Notes: generated by a model not told the origin, from the sequence alone. A stretch of 64,000 bases of DNA from Polyangiales bacterium (GCA_038231275.1 JBBRLQ010000016.1:128001-192000); one strand, 5' to 3'; shown: positions 7,406-56,120, numbered from the stretch's first letter. Made by a program: numbers and translations.

Positions 7406-8437
7406 GTGCGCGCCGCGCCCGCTCTCGTCCCCGGGCTCGCGCTCGTCGCGGTGCTTGTCATGGCGCCGGCGCGCGCGTATGCAGAGACGAGCCCGACCGT
7501 GCACGTTGACTACGCCGCGCCGTCCGGGTGTCCGGGCGAGCGCGCGTTCGTCGATGAGCTCGTGGCGCGAGCTCCGCGCGCGCGCGTCGCGGTGCCGAGC
7601 GAGCCGGCGCGAACGTTGATCGTGCGCGTCGCGGCGCGCCAGGGTCATTTCACCGGTCGCCTGAACGTGCGCGCGCTCGACGGAGGCGACACGGAGCGCG
7701 AGCTCGGCGCGGACAGCTGCGCGGAGCTCGTTTCGGCGCTCGCCCTCGTCGCGGCGGTGGCGGTGGACCCTACGGTCGCTTCGACCGCGACCGCGACCTC
7801 GACCCCGACCTCGACCTCGACCCCGACCTCGACCCCGACCCCGACCCCGACTCCGACTCCGACTCCGACCCCGACTCCGACTCCGACCCCGACTCCGACT
7901 CCGACCCTGACTCCGACTCCGACTCCGCATCTCTTTCATGTCCGCGTCGTGGTGGGGAGCGAGGCGGTCTCGGGTCCATTGCCCGATGTGGTCGTCGGGT
8001 TTCCCGTCGTGAGCCTCGACGTCGACAAGGAGACGACCGATCTCCTGCGCCCCGCCTTTCGCGCGAGGTTCGTGACGGCGAGCGACGACGCGGCGAGCGC
8101 GCGGTTCGTGTGGACGGCGGGGAGCCTCGAGGGGTGTCCGATCGGGGGGGTGCTGGGGCCGGTGGGCGCCGCGGCGTGCGCGCGAGGCGAGGCGGGCGCG
8201 CTGTATGGGCGAGGAGCGGTCGGGCCGAGCCGGGACCGAACGACGCCCTGGGTTGCCCTCGGCCCGGTGGGGCGCGCGCGCGTCGAGATCGTCGGGAACC
8301 TCGGGCTCGAAATCGAAGGGAGCCTATTTTTCCCGGTCGTTCGCGATCGGTTCACCCTCGAGTCGGGGGCGACGGTCTTTCGACCGCCGGCCGTCGGCTG
8401 GGCCGTGGGAGGTGGGGCGTCCGTGATCATTTGGTGA
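7406..8437 (+). CDS. Secreted protein: N-terminal Cys-pair domain, Pro-Thr linker, putative OM beta-barrel (ECF module 1, gene 1)
   Basis: Signal peptide, (PT)n linker, amphipathic beta-strands ending in Trp; paralogous to 51616-52629. Confidence 0.7.
   Translation: MRAAPALVPGLALVAVLVMAPARAYAETSPTVHVDYAAPSGCPGERAFVDELVARAPRARVAVPSEPARTLIVRVAARQGHFTGRLNVRALDGGDTERELGADSCAELVSALALVAAVAVDPTVASTATATSTPTSTSTPTSTPTPTPTPTPTPTPTPTPTPTPTPTLTPTPTPHLFHVRVVVGSEAVSGPLPDVVVGFPVVSLDVDKETTDLLRPAFRARFVTASDDAASARFVWTAGSLEGCPIGGVLGPVGAAACARGEAGALYGRGAVGPSRDRTTPWVALGPVGRARVEIVGNLGLEIEGSLFFPVVRDRFTLESGATVFRPPAVGWAVGGGASVIIW
7785..7927 (+). repeat. Hexamer tandem repeat (CCGACY-like)n encoding Thr-Pro linker
   Basis: Direct reading of ccgact/ccgacc units. 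Confidence 0.95.
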
Positions 8438-8479
8438 TCGTGAGGTGCGCGGCCGGACATTTCGGCGGCAGGGCGTAGG

Positions 8480-9115
8480 ATGGGAAACGTGGCGACGTTG
8501 CAGCCGGGCGGTTTCGGAGCGCCCATCGACATCGGGTCGTCCGAGGAGAGCTCAGCGCCGCCCGTGTCGCGCGCGCAGGTGCGACTGCGCGGTGACGCCG
8601 AGGTGCGGTTTCGCGCGATGGTCGACGGGCATTTCGATTTCATTTGGCGATCGCTCCGCGGCCTCGGCGTTCCCTCCGCCAACGCCGACGACGCAGCCCA
8701 GCAGGTGTTCCTCGTCGCCGCGCAGAAACTGGAGCTCATCGCCGCCGGCAGCGAGCGGAGCTTCCTCTTCTCGACAGCGCGCGGGATCGCTGCGAACGCG
8801 CGGCGATCGCGCGCGCGCAGCCGCGAGGTCCCGGAGGAAGGCGCCCTCGCAGAGCCGGTGGACGGCGCACCCGATCCCGAGCAAGAGGCGGCGCGTGCGC
8901 AGGCGCGGCGCGTCCTCGAGGGAATCCTCGAGGGGCTGTCCGACGATCTACGGAGCGTGTTCGTCCTCTTCGAGCTCGAAGGAATGACGACGATGCAGAT
9001 GGCGGAGCTGCTCGGCGTGCCGATGGGCACGGTGGCGTCGCGGCTCCGTCGCGCGCGCGAGGAGTTTCAGGCCGCGACCAAGCGATTCCAAGCGAGCCGA
9101 GGGGGACGCACATGA
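8480..9115 (+). CDS. ECF sigma-70 family factor
   Basis: Region 2 DFIWRSLRGLGV..ADDAAQQVFL; region 4 LRSVFVLFELEGMT..MAELLGVPMGTVASRLRRAR. Confidence 0.95.
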   Translation: MGNVATLQPGGFGAPIDIGSSEESSAPPVSRAQVRLRGDAEVRFRAMVDGHFDFIWRSLRGLGVPSANADDAAQQVFLVAAQKLELIAAGSERSFLFSTARGIAANARRSRARSREVPEEGALAEPVDGAPDPEQEAARAQARRVLEGILEGLSDDLRSVFVLFELEGMTTMQMAELLGVPMGTVASRLRRAREEFQAATKRFQASRGGRT

Positions 9116-9927
9116 CCGAGCCGCGACGACTCCTCGACGAAGGCGGCGACTTCGATCGCGCCCTCCTCCACGCGTGGAAAGACGAGCAGCCATCGCCGCG
9201 CGCGCGCGCGGAGCTGTTCGCGCTGGCTGGGCTCGCGGCGACAGGCGCGGCGGCCGTAGGTGCAGCAGGTGCTGCAGGTGCGGCAGGTGCGGCAGGTGCG
9301 GCCGGCTCGATCGCGCCGAAGGCCGCGGCGGGCGGGCTCGCGCTGGCCAAATGGATCCTGGTCGGCGCCGCTGCGCTCGGCGCGACGAGCGCCCTGGTCG
9401 TCTACGCGCGCCGCGACGCCGCAACGCCGCCCCTCGCCGCGTCCACCGTGGCATCGCCGTCGCCGATCCCCACGGTCACGCCTGCGCCTCTCGTCTCGCC
9501 CGTCAGCACCGTTCCTCCCGCCAACGTACCCGCTCCCCTCGCCACTCCGTCGACCCCCGCGACTGCCGTGGCCACCGCGACCGCCGCCGTCACTGCGAAG
9601 ACGACGACGAAGCCGCGCGACACGGCCGCCAGCACAGGCTCTCTCGCCGATCAGATCGCCGCAATCGATCGCGCGCGCGCCGCGCTCGAAGCCGGTGACG
9701 CGACGGACGCGCTCCGCCTCGTCGACGACTACGAGGCGCGCTTCGGAGGCAACGGCGCCGCGTTTCAACAAGAGGCCGACGTCATTCGCATGGACGCGCT
9801 CGTCCGGCAGGGTGATGGCGCAAAGGCGACGCGCCTCGGCACGCGCTTCCTCGCGGCGCATCCGCAGAGCCCTCACGCGGGTCACGTGCGCGCGCTCGTC
9901 GAAAGCCAGGGCGGCGCCGCGCCGTGA
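9112..9927 (+). CDS. Putative anti-sigma factor (TM, Pro/Thr linker, TPR-like C-terminus)
   Basis: ATGA overlap with sigma; short cytoplasmic N-terminus, TM helix, helical domain ending FLAAHPQSPH. Confidence 0.75.
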   Translation: MTEPRRLLDEGGDFDRALLHAWKDEQPSPRARAELFALAGLAATGAAAVGAAGAAGAAGAAGAAGSIAPKAAAGGLALAKWILVGAAALGATSALVVYARRDAATPPLAASTVASPSPIPTVTPAPLVSPVSTVPPANVPAPLATPSTPATAVATATAAVTAKTTTKPRDTAASTGSLADQIAAIDRARAALEAGDATDALRLVDDYEARFGGNGAAFQQEADVIRMDALVRQGDGAKATRLGTRFLAAHPQSPHAGHVRALVESQGGAAP

Positions 9928-10454
9928 GCCGCGCCGTCTGGGCCGCGCTCGTGCTCTCGCCCTTCGCGTCCCTCGCGCCGTTCGCGCTCGCCTGCGGTAC
10001 CGACGTGAGCCTCGGCGGGACGCCAGACGCCGCCGCGCCCGACGTCGTAACGGTCGATCTCTCGCTCGACTGCCAGCCTTGCCTCACGCAGACCGACTGC
10101 ACGCCGTCCGCGACCTGCGGCGTGTTCGCCGGCGACTCGTTCTGCGCGACCGCGTGCCCGGAAGGCACGGGCTGCGAGCGCGACGAGACGTGCGACGCCA
10201 TCACGACCGTCGGCGGAGCGGCGATCAAGGCGTGCGTCCCCAACGGTGGCGTGTGCGCGCCGGAGATCGGACCGGCGCTCGACGGAGCGATCCTCGATCG
10301 CTGCGGCGCGCTCGACGGCCCCACCGTCGTCACGTCGGCGTGCCACTCCTGCGGCAAGTACTCGAGCGACTGTCAGGGCAACGGCTGCTATGGCGGCTGG
10401 TGGTGCAACACGAGCACCCGCAAGTGTCAGAGGCCGCCGAAGACGTGCCCGTGA
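9924..10454 (+). CDS. Cys-rich lipoprotein (ECF module 1, gene 4)
   Basis: GTGA overlap; lipobox ALAC-GTDVSLGG; many Cys. Confidence 0.8.
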   Translation: MSRAVWAALVLSPFASLAPFALACGTDVSLGGTPDAAAPDVVTVDLSLDCQPCLTQTDCTPSATCGVFAGDSFCATACPEGTGCERDETCDAITTVGGAAIKACVPNGGVCAPEIGPALDGAILDRCGALDGPTVVTSACHSCGKYSSDCQGNGCYGGWWCNTSTRKCQRPPKTCP

Positions 10455-10688: not shown

Positions 10689-11645
10689 ATGCGCCTCGCG
10701 CGAAACGTCGTCGCCTTCGCGATCGTGCTCACGGGCGCGGCGTGCGGCCTCGACCTCACGGGCACGGCAAACCTCTCGACCGACGACGACGGCGGGACGA
10801 CGGGCACGGACGGTTCCATGGACGCGCCCGGCCACGCCGACGCGACGAGCGGAACGGACGGCTCCTCTGCGCGTGACACCGCCAGCGACACGGCCACGCT
10901 CCCCGACACCGCGCCGCCGGTCGACGCGGGCATCGACACGGGCGTCGACGCGTGCGGTCCGATCGTCGTCATCCGCGACGACTTCGGCAGCGGCATCGGC
11001 GCCGCGTGGACCAAGGTCGGCTCTGCGACTGCGACGACCGCCGGAGGCGCGAACGGACCGTTCGTCACGTTGACGCCGCTGCAAGGCGGACAACAGGGCG
11101 AGCTCCTCTATGCGACCGCGCAACCGCTCGGGACGTTCCGCGTCGACTTCCAGTTCTACATGAGCACGGGCGGCCAGAGCCCCGTCGCCGACGGCCTCAC
11201 GTTCGCGTGGTTCGATCGCGCGACCGGCTTCGGCACCGCCGTCGGCGGCAAGGGACTTGGCCTCCCGAGGACGACCGGCGGCTACGCCGTCACGTTCGAC
11301 ACCTGGCAGAATACCGACATCAACGATCCGTCGAGCCCGTACTTCGGCGTCCTGAAGCTCGACTCCGCCAAAGACCCCGGCACCTTCGACTGGCACGGCG
11401 GAAGCTCGTCCCAGCTTCCGCTCATCGCGGGCGTATGGCACACGGCGCAGATCGTGGTCGTCGCCGGCAACGTTCGACTCATCGTGGACACGATCCCGTT
11501 CTTGAGCGGAATCACGACGACGCCCATCGTGAGCGGCGCGTTCGGCTTCACGGCAGCGACGGGAGGCGGTAACCCGATCGGGGTCGCGCTCGACAACGTC
11601 GTCTTCGCGATTCCGAATCCCGCGTGCCCGAGCGCGTTCCCTTGA
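10689..11645 (+). CDS. Lipoprotein with L-type (legume-like) lectin domain
   Basis: Lipobox GAAC; ADGLTFAW, YAVTFDTWQN, GFTAATGG motifs. Confidence 0.85.
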   Translation: MRLARNVVAFAIVLTGAACGLDLTGTANLSTDDDGGTTGTDGSMDAPGHADATSGTDGSSARDTASDTATLPDTAPPVDAGIDTGVDACGPIVVIRDDFGSGIGAAWTKVGSATATTAGGANGPFVTLTPLQGGQQGELLYATAQPLGTFRVDFQFYMSTGGQSPVADGLTFAWFDRATGFGTAVGGKGLGLPRTTGGYAVTFDTWQNTDINDPSSPYFGVLKLDSAKDPGTFDWHGGSSSQLPLIAGVWHTAQIVVVAGNVRLIVDTIPFLSGITTTPIVSGAFGFTAATGGGNPIGVALDNVVFAIPNPACPSAFP

Positions 11646-50595: not shown

Positions 50596-51414
50596 ATGCG
50601 CCTCGCGCAGACTCTGATCGCCCTCGCGGTGCTCGTCGTGGGGTGCAAGGGGAGCGAGAGCGCGGGGAAGCCGGCGACGCCAAGCGCGTCGGCTCCTGCC
50701 TCGAGCGCAACGGCGAGCACGAGCGCGAACGCGAACGCGATGGCGGCGACGTCCGCGAGCGCGATCGCCAGCGGGGACGCCGGCGCGAGGATCGCGCGCA
50801 CGACGGGCGGAGTCGCCGGAGCGGCCGAGACGCGCTTCGTCTTCGACGCGGACGCGGCCGGCGCGGCTCCGGCAGGCTTCACGTCGCTTCGAACGGGGAG
50901 CGGGCGCGTGGGGAGTTGGATCGTGCGCGCCGAAGGAGATGGCCCCGGCGCGCCGATGATCCTCGCGCAGACGGACGCGGATCCCACCGACAATCGCTTC
51001 CCGATGCTCCTCGCCGACGCGCCCGTCCTCGCGGACGTCCAGGTGTCCGTCCGATGCAAACCCGTGTCGGGGAAGGTCGACCAAGCGTGCGGCGTCGTGT
51101 GCCGCGCGAAGGGCGCCGACGACTACTACCTCGCGCGCGCAAACGCGCTCGAGGGCAACGTCCGCCTCTACGTGGTCGAGCACGGCAAGCGCCGCCAGCT
51201 CGAAAGCTACTCGGGCGCAGTCACGGGTGGGCAGTGGCACAAGCTCGCGCTCTGGTGCCACGGCGCCGGGCTCAGCGTCTACTGGGACGAGGCGCGGGTG
51301 CTGCGACAGGCCGACAAGACGTTCACCGAAGCCGGCAAGGTCGGGCTTTGGACCAAGGCAGACTCGGTCACCTACTTCGACGCCCTCGTCGTTCGCGAGA
51401 TGTCGAACATGTAG
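50596..51414 (+). CDS. Lipoprotein with ConA-like (DUF1080-like) domain
   Basis: Lipobox VVGC; DQACGVV.R..DDYYLARANALEGNV, GKVGLWTKADSVTYFD. Confidence 0.75.
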   Translation: MRLAQTLIALAVLVVGCKGSESAGKPATPSASAPASSATASTSANANAMAATSASAIASGDAGARIARTTGGVAGAAETRFVFDADAAGAAPAGFTSLRTGSGRVGSWIVRAEGDGPGAPMILAQTDADPTDNRFPMLLADAPVLADVQVSVRCKPVSGKVDQACGVVCRAKGADDYYLARANALEGNVRLYVVEHGKRRQLESYSGAVTGGQWHKLALWCHGAGLSVYWDEARVLRQADKTFTEAGKVGLWTKADSVTYFDALVVREMSNM

Positions 51415-51615: not shown

Positions 51616-52629
51616 GTGGGATCTCGCGCCGCGTCGTCCCTCGCGCTGGCCTGCTTCGTCGTCGTGAGCGCCGCAACGACCGACGCGCGCGCCGACGGCG
51701 ACGACGTCGCCCTCGACTGGGTCGCGCCCTCCGAGTGCGCGACCGGCGCGCACGTTGCTGCAGAAATCGCGCGCCTTCGTGCGGGGCCACCACGCGTGCG
51801 GGTTCGAGCACACGCGCGCATCACGCGCGACGCGAACGCGTGGTCGTTGGAGCTGACGACGGAGATCGACGGCGCCGAGCACAAGCGCGCATTCCAGGCG
51901 GCGACCTGCGGAGAGCTCTCGGACGCGGCGGCGACGGTGCTCGCGCTCGAAACCGCGGGCGAGCCGACCCCAACCCCGACCCCGACCCCGACCCCAACTC
52001 CGACGCCGACGCCGACCCCGACCCCGACCCCGACTCCGACTCCGACCCCGACGCCGACGCCGACGCCGACCCCGACTCCGACGCCGACTCCGACTCCGAC
52101 GCCGACCCCGACGCCGACTCGTCCCTTTGCTGCGGGGGTTGGCGTCGTTGGAACGGGAGGCGCGGTCGGTCCCTTCGCGCTCGGCGCCGCAATCGTGGGA
52201 GCGTGGACGCCGGGCCACGAGCGTGCGGAAATCATGGCCTCGTACAGCCCCCCGACCCGTGTAGATCGCACCGATCTCTCCATCGGCGGCAACTTCAGCC
52301 TCCTCCTCTTCGGCGTCGCGGCGTGCCACGTCTTCGGAGACGGCGTCTTCCGCGCGGGGCCGTGCGCCGGGATCGAAGCTGGGCGGATCGGCGCGGTGGG
52401 CGTCGGCAACGCAGTGCAGACTCCGGAGCCGACGGGCGGCGCATGGGTCGCGCCGAAAGCGTCGGCCCTCGCGCTGGTCTCGCTGGGGCGCTTCGCGCTC
52501 CGAATCGAAGGAGGCGCCGTCATCCCGCTCGTTCGAAATACCTTCACGATTACAGGGGTCGACCAGGTTTACCGCCCCGCCGCAGTGGTTGCCAGAGGGG
52601 GATTCGGCGTCGAGGTCGCGTTTCCGTGA
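51616..52629 (+). CDS. Secreted protein: N-terminal Cys-pair domain, Pro-Thr linker, putative OM beta-barrel (ECF module 2, gene 1)
   Basis: Paralog of 7406-8437: WVAPSEC, TCGELSDA, (PT)n, terminal GFGVEVAF. Confidence 0.72.
   Translation: MGSRAASSLALACFVVVSAATTDARADGDDVALDWVAPSECATGAHVAAEIARLRAGPPRVRVRAHARITRDANAWSLELTTEIDGAEHKRAFQAATCGELSDAAATVLALETAGEPTPTPTPTPTPTPTPTPTPTPTPTPTPTPTPTPTPTPTPTPTPTPTPTPTPTRPFAAGVGVVGTGGAVGPFALGAAIVGAWTPGHERAEIMASYSPPTRVDRTDLSIGGNFSLLLFGVAACHVFGDGVFRAGPCAGIEAGRIGAVGVGNAVQTPEPTGGAWVAPKASALALVSLGRFALRIEGGAVIPLVRNTFTITGVDQVYRPAAVVARGGFGVEVAFP
51964..52119 (+). repeat. Hexamer tandem repeat encoding (PT)n
   Basis: ccgacc/ccgact/ccgacg units. Confidence 0.95.
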
Positions 52630-52685
52630 CGACAATCGTTCCGCCGGCCACTCAACGAGAGTTGGGACCTTCGCTTTCCCCATCC

Positions 52686-53285
52686 ATGACCCTTCGCTTG
52701 GTAGACGCCCCCAACGTCCGAGATGCGGCGCACGAGACGGCCGACGGCGTCGTCGCATTTGCAGATCTGTACGACGCGCACGCCAGCTTCGTCTTTCGCG
52801 TCGTCCTTCGCCTCGGCGTAGGGCGCGACGCCGTCGAAGACGTCGTGCAGGAGATCTTCCTCGTCGTTCATCGTCGGCTCGAAGAGTTCGAGCAGCGTTC
52901 GAAGATCCGCACGTGGATCTACGGAATCGCCGTTCGCGTGGCGCGCACGTATCGGCGAACGCTGGCGCGGAAGCACTTGAATCCCGAGAATGGCCGCGAA
53001 GAGCTCGAATCGCACGTGTTGGCGGACGACGCGACGCGCGCGCCGGATGCAGTGCTCGAAAAGGCGCAGGCGGCCGAGCTCGTCGTGACGATCCTGGAAG
53101 AGCTCGACGACGAGCTGCGTGAAGTGTTCGTTCTCGCGGAGCTCGAAGAAATGACGGCGATCGAGATGGGCGAGGTGCTCGGCGTGAGCGCGAACACGGT
53201 GGCATCGCGCTTGCGATTGGCGCGACGCGATTTCGATCGCGCGCTCACCCGAGCGCGTGCCCGCGACGAATGGAGGATGCGGTGA
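52686..53285 (+). CDS. ECF sigma-70 family factor
   Basis: LYDAHASFVFRVVLRLGV..VEDVVQEIFL..RTWIYGIA; LREVFVLAELEEMT..TVASRLRLAR; alternative GTG start at 52626 overlaps upstream stop. Confidence 0.95.
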   Translation: MTLRLVDAPNVRDAAHETADGVVAFADLYDAHASFVFRVVLRLGVGRDAVEDVVQEIFLVVHRRLEEFEQRSKIRTWIYGIAVRVARTYRRTLARKHLNPENGREELESHVLADDATRAPDAVLEKAQAAELVVTILEELDDELREVFVLAELEEMTAIEMGEVLGVSANTVASRLRLARRDFDRALTRARARDEWRMR

Positions 53286-54145
53286 GCGATCTGAGCCGAG
53301 AGGCCCGCGCCCTGCTCTCGCGCGCAAAGAGCTCCGATCACGGCCTCCCCGACGCCGCGTCGCTCGCGCGCACGCGAGGCAGCGTCCTGCGTCGTGCGGG
53401 AATGGGCGCCGCGGCGGGCGTAGCGACCGCGGCCGCGAGCACGGCGACGAAGGCGGCCCCCGTCCTCGTCGCAGCAGGCGCGACGGGAGTGTCTGTTTCG
53501 GTGACTGCGAAGGTCGTGCTCCTCGCGGCGCTCCTGACGGGCGGCGCGGTGGCCGCCGTATCGATTCCGAGCGCTCCGACGCCGAGCGCGCGGGTGGCGG
53601 TCGCAGTGGCTCCACACGGGCCAAGCCGAGCGCCCGAGTCGAAGCAAACGGCCGCACCGCCGCCGGTGGCGACTCCGAGCCCGACTCCGACGCCGACTCC
53701 GACGCCGACTCCGACGCCGACGCCGGCTCCGACTCCGGCTCCGACTCCGGCTCCGACTCCGGCTCCGACTCCGGCTCCGACTCCGGCTCCGACTCCGACG
53801 CCGACTCCCGTTCCGCCCGCGTCTCCGGTTTTTTCGACGGCGTCCGATCCGGCGCCTCTTCCGCCGCCCCCGCCCCCTCTTCCGGGCCTGTCGTCGGACA
53901 TCGCGCACCTTCGCGCGTCGCAAGCCGCGCTCGCGGCCGGAGACGCGCGAACGGCGGAGCACGAAGCGGCGCGCGTGTCAGCGACTGGGCCGCTCGCAGA
54001 AGAGCGTGACGGCATGCTCACCCTCGCGGGGTGCGCTCTAGGAAGCGACGCAGAGGCCGCGCGCCAGGGGACGGATTTCGTGCAGAGGCATCCGTCGTCC
54101 GCGCTCGTGCCGCGCGTGCGTTCGGCGTGCGGCAATTCGATTTGA
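53282..54145 (+). CDS. Putative anti-sigma factor (TM, PT/PA linker, TPR-like C-terminus)
   Basis: GTGA overlap with sigma; ends [18 protein letters not shown], paralogous to 9112-9927. Confidence 0.75.
53670..53810 (+). repeat. Tandem 6/12-bp repeat encoding (PT)n(PAPT)n
   Basis: ccgactccgacg and ccgactccggct units. Confidence 0.95.
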
Positions 54146-54191
54146 TCACGAAACGGCGCGTAGCGGTCACCCACGTGACGAAGAGGTGATC

Positions 54192-54872
54192 ATGACCATC
54201 CGAGCTTTTCATCGCGTATTCTTGACGGCCGCCGCAACCGCAGCGGTGCTCGTGGCGTGCGGAGGCGACATCGCCATTGGTTCTTCGCAGAACCCGCTCG
54301 TCGGCGACGCGTGCGCCGTCTCCGAATGCGGAGCTACGCCGTTCACGTGCAGCAACGGCGCGGCCACCGACGTCGCATGTACGCGTCATCAAGGCGCATG
54401 CACGTGGTCGGGGAAATGCCCCGGCGATTGTCCACCCGCGAAGTGCGCGGACGAAGCCGTGGGATGCGCAGGCAGCTCCGCGGACGGCGGGCCTATCACT
54501 CCGCTTTTCCCGACCAACTTGCGTTGCGCCCCCAGCGCGTTCCGCGGCGTCGGCTCGGCGCCCGCCGATCAGTGCGAGATCCTCTTCGAATGCGCGCCGA
54601 AGCCCGTCGTCACGTGCGCGGCATCGGCATGCGCGAACCAAGGTTTCGCGTGTTTGACGGGGCCCGCAACGAACCTGCGATGCGTGCCCGATCCGAACGC
54701 CGGTGTAGGGTCCAACCCGGTGGGCGCCTGCCTGCTCCTCGGCGATTGCCCGTCGGGCAACGATGCGTCCGCGGGACCCCCGACGCCACCACCGACGTCA
54801 GCGCGGGAAACGGCAACGACGCCTCCGTCGACGCCGGACGCTGACTGGAGCGAAGCGCTGCGGTCGCTGTGA
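54192..54872 (+). CDS. Cys-rich lipoprotein with three internal repeats (ECF module 2, gene 4); probable frameshift near 3' end
   Basis: Lipobox LVAC-GGDIAIGS; three six-Cys repeats, two with TNLRC.P...GVGS.P. Confidence 0.8.
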   Translation: MTIRAFHRVFLTAAATAAVLVACGGDIAIGSSQNPLVGDACAVSECGATPFTCSNGAATDVACTRHQGACTWSGKCPGDCPPAKCADEAVGCAGSSADGGPITPLFPTNLRCAPSAFRGVGSAPADQCEILFECAPKPVVTCAASACANQGFACLTGPATNLRCVPDPNAGVGSNPVGACLLLGDCPSGNDASAGPPTPPPTSARETATTPPSTPDADWSEALRSL

Positions 54873-55474: not shown

Positions 55475-56092
55475 TTACCCCAGACCGTGCTCTTTCGCGA
55501 TCGCCGCGTTCTTCGCGTCGCCTCGCTGCGCCGCCGGCCGCGCTCCGAGTCGCTCGGCGTATTCCCCGAGGGTGGGGCTCGGCTCGAGCATCTTGAAGCG
55601 CAACATGAAGCGGAGCGTCCCGCCGAAGATGCAGTCGGCCATCGAGAAGCGGTCGCCCAGGACGAAGGTCCGTCCTGCGATCGCGCTCTCCATCGCGCCG
55701 ACCATGCTCTCATACGTGCCCCATCCGACCTGGCCGGGCTTGAACTGCCCGCCGGAGCTCTTGGCCGACATCGCCGGCTCGATGACCGACGGCGCGAAGA
55801 GCGACCAGCGCAGATAAGGACCCCGCTCCGGATCGTCAGGCGCCGGCGCCAGCTTCCCGAGCGCGTACCGGTCAGCGAGGTAGAGCCCGATGGCCGCCGA
55901 CTCGGTCACGACGACATCGCCGTCGCGCAAGATGGGGACCTTCCCCATCGGGTTCAGCGCGAGGACCTCCGGAGACTTCTGCGCGTTCTTCATGAGGTCG
56001 ACGAAGGCCAGCTCGTAGGGAGCCCCGACCTCCTCGAGCATCCAGAGCGTGTTGGCGGCGCGCGAGTAGGGGTGGTGGTACAGCGTGATCAT
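55475..56092 (-). CDS. Glutathione S-transferase
   Basis: TLYHHPYSRA, LNPMGKVP, TESAAIGLYLAD, LGDRFSMADC. Confidence 0.95.
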   Translation of the reverse strand: MITLYHHPYSRAANTLWMLEEVGAPYELAFVDLMKNAQKSPEVLALNPMGKVPILRDGDVVVTESAAIGLYLADRYALGKLAPAPDDPERGPYLRWSLFAPSVIEPAMSAKSSGGQFKPGQVGWGTYESMVGAMESAIAGRTFVLGDRFSMADCIFGGTLRFMLRFKMLEPSPTLGEYAERLGARPAAQRGDAKNAAIAKEHGLG

Positions 56093-56120
56093 CCGGTTCA
56101 TCCTCCTCGCGGGAGATTAC

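Follow-up and report, generated by a model that had tools for sequence, protein, structure and literature searches.

A conserved outer-membrane barrel, ECF sigma factor and TPR protein module in a sediment myxobacterium: a candidate two-protein bridge across the periplasm

Introduction

Control of a sigma factor of the extracytoplasmic function (ECF) class by an outer-membrane protein that acts through the anti-sigma factor is known from two sources: the TonB-dependent transducers of cell-surface signalling and the single-chain Dma proteins, which were described in 2024 and thought to be limited to Bacteroidota. The present analysis concerns a gene module of a sediment myxobacterium that was compared with both. 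The module was found in a stretch of 64,000 nucleotides (hereafter the window) from Polyangiales bacterium (GCA_038231275.1 JBBRLQ010000016.1:128001-192000), which lies within contig 16 of an assembly of 9.28 Mb that comprises 164 contigs and is 94% complete. At positions 7406-10454 of the window, consecutive genes are predicted to encode an outer-membrane barrel protein (gene 1), an ECF sigma factor (gene 2), an anti-sigma-like protein with a tetratricopeptide repeat (TPR) end (gene 3), and a Cys-rich lipoprotein (gene 4). The conserved core comprises the barrel protein, the sigma factor and the TPR protein, and this module is real, strongly conserved, and largely unannotated. With a probability of roughly 0.55, we propose that each module is a two-protein bridge across the periplasm controlling one ECF sigma factor.

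Among characterised systems, Dma1/Das1 of Bacteroides comes closest. A single Dma1 chain combines an end that binds sigma, one membrane helix, a periplasmic region without order and an outer-membrane barrel of eight strands, and its authors report no similar proteins outside Bacteroidota (PMC10927553). Both that system and the module place an ECF sigma factor under an assembly that joins a cytoplasmic sigma-binding end (putative here), an inner-membrane helix, a long disordered periplasmic stretch, and an eight-stranded barrel. Both occur as several paralogous systems per genome, and both involve lipoproteins, NigD1 belonging to the Dma regulon and lipoprotein genes lying beside the modules. 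There are also clear differences. What is one polypeptide in Dma is here divided between separate open reading frames (ORFs) with the sigma gene between them, both in the window and in 54 of 60 related loci, and each of the two products has a tether and a globular periplasmic domain that is predicted to dock on the other. Furthermore, Dma1 is annotated as OMP_b-brl_2, whereas the barrel family described here has no Pfam match, and the barrel gene is here upstream of the sigma gene, in a phylum that is Myxococcota as judged from the nearest Atlas clusters.

Separate anti-sigma and outer-membrane barrel proteins have been recorded for the ECF21 subgroups s9, s16, and s28 (PMC7826278 supplement), which resemble the module in having a separate single-pass anti-sigma factor and a separate barrel protein beside the ECF sigma factor. 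They differ in belonging to Bacteroidetes and in having these genes at +1/+2 after the sigma gene, and no N-terminal docking domain, TPR end, or mutual contact is mentioned in the consulted part of their description. The SigX/CfrX/CmpX/OprF system of Pseudomonas (ECF102) is similarly an ECF operon with an OmpA-type porin of eight strands and a suspected role in envelope sensing (PMC7826278). OprF, however, has a C-terminal peptidoglycan-binding domain rather than an N-terminal docking domain, the operon includes a mechanosensitive channel, and no contact of its barrel with the anti-sigma factor is described.

The likeness to FecA/FecR/FecI and the Pseudomonas cell-surface signalling systems is of another kind. 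In those systems, a periplasmic domain at the N-terminus of the outer-membrane protein touches the C-terminal periplasmic part of the anti-sigma factor, as is predicted here, and many paralogues occur per genome (PMC11637429, PMC9249621); the contact is reported to protect the anti-sigma factor from proteolysis (PMC11637429). Unlike FecA/FecR/FecI, the module has no TonB-dependent 22-strand transducer, plug, STN domain, or FecR domain, and its barrel has eight strands in the model and no obvious transport role. An earlier sequence-only reading of this DNA had already stated that neither a TonB receptor nor a FecR domain was part of the module, in agreement with Pfam searches of 8 window proteins, 36 barrel representatives and 46 gene 3 homologues, which returned no TonB-dependent receptor, STN, or FecR match.

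The module sigma factors, a myxobacterial, order-restricted and highly paralogous clade with no shared promoter motif found, would fit the description of ECF210, the agreement being limited to taxonomy and to the lack of a described regulator or promoter motif. ECF210 is listed only from Sorangium, Sandaracinus and Chondromyces, with 139 variants, no regulator, and no conserved promoter motif (PMC7826278 supplement). ECF216, ECF220, and ECF267 are given there as other myxobacterial candidate groups with different described partners (PMC7826278).

No description of a barrel/sigma/TPR module in Myxococcota was found by full-text search, and subscription journals and supplementary tables may hide one. 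The sequence-only reading had known of no characterised example; this needs qualifying. The module would be a case of outer-membrane-linked control of an ECF anti-sigma factor, resembling Dma split into two docking proteins, yet it falls outside the defining features of the Dma and Fec families because it is not one polypeptide and has neither a TonB-dependent transducer nor a FecR domain. If the proposal is correct, two tethered proteins that meet in the periplasm would constitute a third solution to this form of control. It would also account for a sizeable set of genes now annotated as "hypothetical" in large genomes of myxobacteria, give a poorly understood group of myxobacterial sigma factors a likely regulator, and provide a natural set of possibly orthogonal trans-envelope switches for specificity studies or engineering.

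Conservation of the barrel, sigma and TPR genes

The major data for the module as a unit were the gene orders of related loci. Matches to the barrel profile were obtained in 16 of the 20 nearest genomes, including 12/12 of the same family, with 1-10 matches per genome. The synteny set comprised 60 of the 80 matches outside the host genome, the best by E value down to 1.9e-10, with five in that range omitted (mostly at contig edges), and covered 15 genomes. A sigma gene was located directly downstream of the barrel gene on the same strand in 54 of these 60 loci, and this order is far beyond chance. The TPR domain followed in 45 of the 54, the other nine loci having less than 1,350 bp to the contig end. 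Conservation of the synteny elsewhere had been set as a check by the sequence-only reading, and it was borne out both by the barrel-sigma order and by the TPR domain, which was found in 45/45 loci with enough DNA.

The junctions were also conserved. Among the 39 related loci in which all parts and a start could be placed, the overlap of the sigma stop with the anti-sigma start was 4 nt long in 35 and 1 nt long in 2; of the other two loci, one had a 1-nt gap and one a misassigned start. A fortieth locus (L043) with no assignable start was left out of this count. The gap between the barrel and sigma genes ranged from 17 to 222 nt in the related loci. At a greater distance, a barrel match was observed in 62 of 100 genomes sampled from the order (host excluded), which were mostly large and spread across many families. 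In a sample of 200 genomes from the phylum, matches were observed in at least 10, 9 of them in the order of the window itself, and this is an undercount in that 18 candidates were scored per genome.

Within the host genome, tblastn with the two halves of gene 1, from which the Pro/Thr stretch had been excluded, yielded eight full-length paralogues, in each case with an ECF sigma gene next in line and a gene 3-like ORF after it. In these close copies the gene 3 start overlapped the sigma stop by 4 nt in 8/8. Profiles constructed from the eight copies (alignments A1-A4) matched 11 barrel domains, 12 N-domains, and 15 TPR domains in the genome. In a maximum-likelihood tree of the sigma factors, which included 53 of the 58 ECF sigma-domain matches (those with at least 120 profile positions), the 15 best-scoring ECF sigma factors were the module sigma factors and formed one clade with support of 98/90. 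Thirteen of the 15 adjoin barrel and TPR genes detected by profile. For the remaining ones, the sigma gene on contig 6 has an adjoining TPR gene and a very weak barrel match, and that on contig 5 is accompanied by diverged barrel-like and anti-sigma-like ORFs recognised by eye. Since the 15 module sigma factors form one clade with the partner genes alongside, the modules were deduced to have multiplied as units. The module had been read as present in two copies; the second copy exists, and the count extends to a third on the same contig and to about 15 in the genome.

That third module is outside the window at 43447-47569 of contig 16 (L011), and its fourth gene encodes a lipoprotein of 526 residues with RCC1 repeats (PF25390, E 3.2e-58). 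A further TPR-domain match was found on contig 36 beside a sigma factor from outside the module clade. The module on contig 60 runs off the contig at base 1. Its same-genus orthologue has a lipoprotein with the post-Cys tag described below, and the same tag is carried by a lipoprotein ORF at base 112 of contig 5; contigs 60 and 5 may adjoin in the genome.

The barrel protein and its N-domain

Gene 1 of copy 1 (7406-8437, + strand) is an ORF of 343 residues. It was divided into a signal peptide at residues ~1-26, which was read by eye from the sequence rather than called by a predictor, an N-domain at 27-126 (7484-7783, +), a Pro/Thr tether at 127-176, and an eight-stranded barrel at 177-343 (7934-8434, +) with W at its end. 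The AlphaFold2 model, built on an alignment of 100 sequences (A5), had a mean predicted local distance difference test score (pLDDT) of 81.7. The N-domain scored above 93, the signal-peptide region was disordered, and the Pro/Thr stretch was of low confidence. The tether has a median length of 44-56 residues. Linkers of the (PT)n kind, resembling those of genes 1 and 3, are very common throughout the genome; full-length gene 1 as the query returned 112 matches, which for the most part involved (PT)n alone in unrelated ORFs.

Eight long strands were modelled at residues 177-341, and the protein thus models as a small eight-stranded outer-membrane barrel of the OmpA membrane domain/OmpX/OmpW/NspA fold. 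The assignment is supported by fold matches to OmpW (Z 16.1; root-mean-square deviation [rmsd] 2.6 over 161 aligned residues), NspA (Z 15.9), the OmpA membrane domain (Z 14.7), and the N-terminal domain of OprF (Z 14.4). Foldseek likewise matched the barrel to NspA (E 2.3e-5), to OmpX with a template modelling score of 0.68, and to Ail, with a probability of 1.00. The architecture read initially from the sequence, namely a signal peptide, a Cys-pair domain, a Pro/Thr spacer and a barrel, was therefore recovered in the model. By sequence, the protein is not a member of OMP_b-brl, OmpA_membrane or OmpW, and no Pfam family was assigned to the two window copies or to 36 representatives. The 30 Atlas clusters nearest to gene 1 were all named "hypothetical protein" and had no Pfam family in common, with Myxococcota as the commonest phylum.

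The size of the family was estimated with a profile of the C-terminal domain of gene 1, which was run against 1.84 billion representative proteins (clusters at 50% identity). It gave 12,217 matches at E<=0.001, 5,187 at E<=1e-10, and 19 at E<=1e-30. Among the best 150 barrel-domain matches, the full-length proteins were mostly of 270-410 residues with the domain at the C-terminal end, and about 30 shorter rows were essentially the domain by itself.

In the model, residues 31-120 of the N-domain adopt a beta-alpha-beta-beta-beta-alpha arrangement. The best fold matches were the N-terminal domain of TolB (Z 8.9; 97 aligned residues, rmsd 2.6-2.9), TraT (Z 8.5) and CsgG (Z 8.1), and CT253 and ribosome hibernation factors were matched at Z 8.0-8.5. 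A word-indexed search with the N-domain returned only 8 proteins, none of them named and none with a Pfam domain.

Conserved residues were assigned from the family alignment (n=100). The Cys residues are nearly invariant, C42 being present in 97/100, C105 in 100/100, and C244 and C258 in 96/100 each. C244 and C258 sit on neighbouring strands of the modelled barrel, and the Cys pairs would presumably form two disulfides. R98 of the N-domain is invariant in the same alignment. The amphipathic strands had been read as ending in an aromatic residue, and an aromatic residue does occupy the last or next-to-last position of the protein in 94/100 members. Eight-stranded barrels usually have both ends directed toward the periplasm. 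By analogy, the N-domain would be periplasmic, and the only long loop, that at 311-330, would face outward, in a region which holds the conserved residues P310, R313, and F316.

The anti-sigma-like protein and its predicted contact with the barrel protein

Gene 3 of copy 1 (9112-9927, +) encodes an anti-sigma-like single-pass protein of 271 residues. Its parts are cytoplasmic helices at ~7-46, an Ala/Gly spacer, a hydrophobic segment at ~76-99, a Pro-rich tether at ~100-175, and a five-helix TPR domain at 176-271; the median tether length is 82 residues. The model and the profile were made from a 46-sequence alignment (A7). Five helices were modelled at residues 178-267 of the C-domain with pLDDT 97-98, and the Pro-rich stretch was disordered. 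The A7 profile matched chain 9pxg_D of BamD (E 4.6e-6, residues 24-102) and, weakly, other BamD entries. The top Foldseek row was BamD of Neisseria (5waq, E 1.3e-2, rmsd 2.3 over 86 columns), followed by other TPR domains (rmsd ~2 over ~90 columns), and no Foldseek match was obtained at E<=0.001. Pfam assigned TPR_14 to 11/46 and YfiO to 10/46 of the gene 3 homologues, the matches of the window protein being under the curated cut-offs. The end of gene 3 was accordingly modelled as TPR repeats resembling the N-terminal repeats of BamD/YfiO. This model, together with the BamD and TPR matches, agrees with the first description of the protein as a short cytoplasmic part, a membrane helix, a long Pro/Thr spacer and a TPR-like end. 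The designation of gene 3 as a putative anti-sigma factor rests on its position, translational coupling, and topology.

The contact between the two proteins was examined by co-folding part of gene 1 (residues 27-126) with part of gene 3 (residues 170-271), using paired alignments (A6/A7) from the same 46 loci. The interface score (interaction prediction score from aligned errors, ipSAE) was 0.82, with runs of 0.81, 0.82, and 0.82, and the best of three controls scored 0.04. The pLDDT of the partner did not fall below 85, and no less than 83% of the contacts recurred between runs. The mark used is reached by 116/157 solved complexes and by 2/215 mismatched pairs, counts that are only rough here, where custom alignments were supplied. 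To our knowledge there is no solved complex of this kind, and it therefore seems unlikely that the model passed by reproducing a known structure. The sequence-only reading had placed the N-domain of the barrel protein against the TPR domain of the anti-sigma factor, and the co-fold, as a prediction with controls, points to the same pairing.

On the N-domain side, the predicted interface draws on strands (residues 86-88 and 95-102) and on helix 2 (104-123), and on the TPR side it draws on helices 177-189, 217-228, and 252-258. R98 of gene 1 (45/46 in the paired-locus set) and E221 of gene 3 (45/46), each the most strongly conserved residue of its domain, both lie within it, and position 181 of gene 3 is Glu in 41/46. 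The other positions in the predicted interface vary among paralogues, as would be expected if each pair had a private specificity. Arg98 of the barrel protein and Glu221 of the anti-sigma factor are thus singled out by the predicted interface as testable residues.

The sigma factor and its surroundings

Gene 2 of copy 1 (8480-9115, +) is an ORF of 211 residues whose start codon is uncertain. The sigma70-ECF model TIGR02937 was matched at 70.1 bits by copy 1 and at 83.5 bits by copy 2 (cut-off 42.9). For copy 1, Sigma70_r4_2 was matched at E 4.5e-12, and Sigma70_r2 at 22.1 bits, slightly below the cut-off of 24. For copy 2, the corresponding matches were E 1.4e-10 for Sigma70_r4_2 and E 1.3e-12 for Sigma70_r2. 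From these matches gene 2 is assigned as an ECF (group 4) sigma-70 factor with regions 2 and 4 only.

The DNA preceding the barrel genes (60 sequences) and the gaps between barrel and sigma genes (62) were searched for two-block motifs (a 5-mer, 15-18 nt, and a 4-mer) and for 6-mers by counting, which yielded only GC-rich words that were common in coding controls as well. A sigma-70 promoter scan returned 0 sites. A block at 8455-8477 (+), within the 42 nt that separate gene 1 of copy 1 from its sigma gene, is conserved with the same-genus orthologue and could be a promoter or a translation signal. The pattern derived from it had 2 matches in the window, where 0.74 were expected by chance and 2 were reached in 20/100 shuffles, and it thus gave no evidence of a regulon.

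The two copies in the window

All four genes of both copies were present as ORFs on the + strand, in line with the four co-oriented genes read initially. The last three genes of copy 1 had been read as translationally coupled, and the overlaps are visible in the sequence, with ATGA at 9112-9115 for the sigma stop and the gene 3 ATG and GTGA at 9924-9927 for the gene 3 stop and the gene 4 GTG. In copy 2, gene 1 (51616-52629, +) encodes a barrel protein of 337 residues with the architecture of copy 1, recognised by the barrel-domain and N-domain profiles. The ECF sigma gene (52686-53285, +) encodes 199 residues from the ATG at 52686, with an alternative start at GTG 52626. The anti-sigma-like protein, with a Pro/Thr/Ala tether and a TPR-like end, extends from 53270 or 53282 to 54145 (+). 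The sigma stop TGA at 53283-53285 overlaps the GTG at 53282 to give GTGA, and this GTG rather than the ATG at 53270 is likely to be the true start, because the N-terminus of the protein then resembles that of the same-genus orthologue (L033), which has the usual 4-nt overlap. Gene 4 (54186-54872, +), a Cys-rich lipoprotein of 228 residues with a canonical lipobox, does not overlap the anti-sigma gene, from which it is separated by ~40 nt.

Comparison of the two copies by BLASTP was significant only for the sigma pair (40% identity, E 1e-32); the E values for genes 1, 3, and 4 were 1.6, 14, and 0.52, respectively. By profile, genes 1 and 3 are homologous between the copies, copy 2 scoring E 4.5e-53 for the barrel domain, E 2.2e-33 for the N-domain, and E 4.4e-27 for the TPR domain. 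For gene 4, the only features in common were the lipobox, the many Cys residues, and a short N-terminal tag. The claim of a second copy at 51616-54872 thus holds for gene order and for the homology of genes 1 and 3, but not for gene 4, which is unrelated by BLASTP and lacks the overlap with the anti-sigma gene. Pfam and NCBIfam placed genes 1, 3, and 4 of the window modules in no curated family, returning only low-complexity Pro/Thr matches and one sub-threshold TPR match.

The lipoproteins and their post-Cys tag

Gene 4 of copy 1 (9924-10454, +) is an ORF of 176 residues with a lipobox pattern and 19 Cys residues beyond the lipobox Cys. Lipoproteins were called by a pattern match (hydrophobic stretch plus lipobox) and not by a dedicated predictor, and both window copies of gene 4 match the pattern. 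The Atlas clusters nearest to the copy 1 protein were Cys-rich proteins of Myxococcota, all with scores below 0.9. Of the 44 related loci that could be assessed, 21 had a co-oriented lipoprotein gene starting no more than 700 bp past the anti-sigma stop, as had 9 of 14 loci of the host genome, and the sequences of these lipoproteins are variable. The module had been described as a four-gene unit; this was not supported, and the conserved core is three genes. Many of the module lipoproteins are Cys-rich, one is an RCC1 propeller, and one has 639 residues and no Pfam family.

A short tag that directly follows the lipidated Cys, of the form C-X(1-6)-[VIL]-X-[VIL]-G, was present in 16 of 30 module lipoproteins, including gene 4 of both window copies. 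It was present in 21 of 1,578 crudely called lipoproteins genome-wide, at least 7 of these 21 being beside modules; the contrast is indicative only, in that the pattern was defined after the module lipoproteins had been viewed and too many lipoproteins are predicted by the genome-wide call. The tag points to a functional link between the lipoproteins and the modules, whether as sensors, cargo, or outputs. A more elaborate and improbable, though not negligible, extension is that each of the ~15 modules serves a single tagged lipoprotein of its own. The tag would be read by the cognate barrel protein, either by being threaded through or alongside the barrel to the surface or by being bound by the N-domain, and occupancy would alter the grip on the TPR domain. 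The export or surface state of the lipoprotein would in this way be coupled to its own transcription, giving a TonB-independent, non-covalent trans-envelope feedback circuit in many orthogonal copies.

Proposed mechanism and alternatives

The proposed bridge builds on the computed gene order, folds, and family sizes and on the predicted contact between the N-domain and the TPR domain. To these we add, by inference, that gene 3 binds sigma, that the Cys pairs form disulfides, and that release is proteolytic, together with the regulon and the kind of signal. The gene 3 protein would reside in the inner membrane, its short N-terminal helices holding the sigma factor in the cytoplasm and its Pro-rich tether of ~80 residues presenting the small TPR domain in the periplasm. 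The gene 1 protein would leave the cytoplasm by the Sec route and form an eight-stranded barrel in the outer membrane, from which the Pro/Thr tether of ~50 residues would hang the disulfide-stabilised alpha/beta domain in the periplasm. This domain would dock on the TPR domain near Glu221, chiefly through its second helix and Arg98, and the anti-sigma factor would be shielded for as long as the contact is kept. An event at the outer membrane or the surface would weaken the contact, the candidates being loss or misassembly of the barrel, an agent acting at the conserved last surface loop, or the adjacent tagged lipoprotein. The freed tether or TPR domain would then be open to periplasmic cleavage and next to intramembrane proteolysis, and the released sigma factor would transcribe its own operon and the co-transcribed lipoprotein gene. 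Proteolytic release is suggested by analogy, including that with the Myxococcus anti-sigma factor DdvA, whose bulky periplasmic domain blocks RseP cleavage (PMC11506125).

A different role for the lipoprotein was proposed in the sequence-only reading, in which a Cys-rich surface lipoprotein senses a ligand and signals to the barrel, whose N-domain in turn transmits this to the TPR domain of the anti-sigma factor. This was considered doubtful. The predicted contact between the N-domain and the TPR domain agrees with it, as do the frequent lipoprotein genes past the anti-sigma gene (21/44 and 9/14), which sometimes overlap the anti-sigma stop (offsets of -3). The occurrence of one tag in 16/30 lipoproteins that are otherwise unrelated also suggests a common docking partner in the module. 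However, about half of the modules have no adjacent lipoprotein gene, so the lipoprotein is not an obligatory part of a relay. Moreover, the lipoproteins are unrelated in sequence and include RCC1 propellers, which would suit outputs equally, and the tag pattern was defined post hoc.

The barrel protein could instead be merely a co-regulated envelope output or neighbour, the TPR domain of gene 3 sensing the signal by itself. ECF operons often carry targets beside the sigma gene, the intergenic gap of 17-222 nt means that the barrel gene is not translationally coupled to the sigma gene, and a few barrel genes (6/60) have no detected downstream sigma gene. Nevertheless, a barrel-sigma-anti-sigma order in 54/60 loci and in ~15 diverged paralogues per genome would be unusual for a mere target, and in the co-fold the residues of greatest conservation in the two periplasmic domains come together in a single interface, the controls scoring no more than 0.04, so this explanation appears quite unlikely. 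Another explanation, that the module monitors the assembly of outer-membrane proteins, would have the BamD-like TPR domain recognise an unassembled barrel or its C-terminal beta-signal, comparable to DegS/RseB for sigma-E, rather than the folded N-domain. The N-terminal repeats of BamD have been implicated in binding the beta-signals of substrates, and these repeats are the best sequence and fold matches of the TPR domain (9pxg_D and 5waq); the canonical aromatic end signal of 94/100 family members also fits. We consider it very unlikely, since the TPR matches are weak and generic, a general stress would not require ~15 diverged co-duplicated pairs per genome, and the predicted interface involves the N-domain.

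Several observations weigh against the two-protein bridge itself. The co-fold value is a model confidence and not a measurement, and the custom alignments used here are outside its calibration. The Z values of the N-domain are middling, and values in this range may reflect merely a common arrangement. For gene 3, the three short N-terminal helices reached a pLDDT of only ~76, the Ala/Gly and membrane segments were poorly modelled, and the Pfam anti-sigma domains zf-HC2, RskA, and FecR were found in 0/46 homologues. The two tethers jointly exceed the width of the periplasm, and a taut mechanical link is therefore unlikely. No shared promoter motif was found upstream of the barrel or sigma genes, and autoregulation and a regulon are thus unsupported. 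The six barrel genes without a detected downstream sigma gene are L036, L056, L076, L079, L083, and L084. Lastly, the gene 1 paralogue on contig 17 (163203-164141; L015:704-1642) lacks a signal-peptide-like N-terminus and begins right past the stop of the upstream gene. This copy is otherwise intact, with N-domain, barrel, sigma, and anti-sigma, and may be truncated or decaying or may reflect an assembly or start-site problem.

Two of the six loci without a sigma gene are close to contig ends, L079 at only 312 bp and L056 at only 746 bp. The other four (L036, L076, L083, and L084, from relatives G007, G018, and G014) have room for a downstream sigma gene and none directly there, and L084 and L076 have a TPR-domain gene nearby on the opposite strand. 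These four may be orphan or rearranged modules.

Neighbouring genes

Two lectin-like genes were observed beside the window modules. A legume-lectin-like lipoprotein is encoded at 10689-11645 (+), 235 nt past gene 4 of copy 1, and matches the legume-lectin beta-barrel family PF18483 at E 1.5e-12, under the curated cut-off. The region 3' of copy 1 gene 4 is not conserved in the same-genus orthologous locus, and the membership of this lipoprotein in the module is uncertain. A weakly lectin-like lipoprotein is encoded directly upstream of copy 2 at 50596-51414, and neither lectin-like gene could be tied to the modules. Past copy 2, a glutathione S-transferase gene on the opposite strand (55475-56101, -; GST_N, E 7.6e-17) marks the end of that module.

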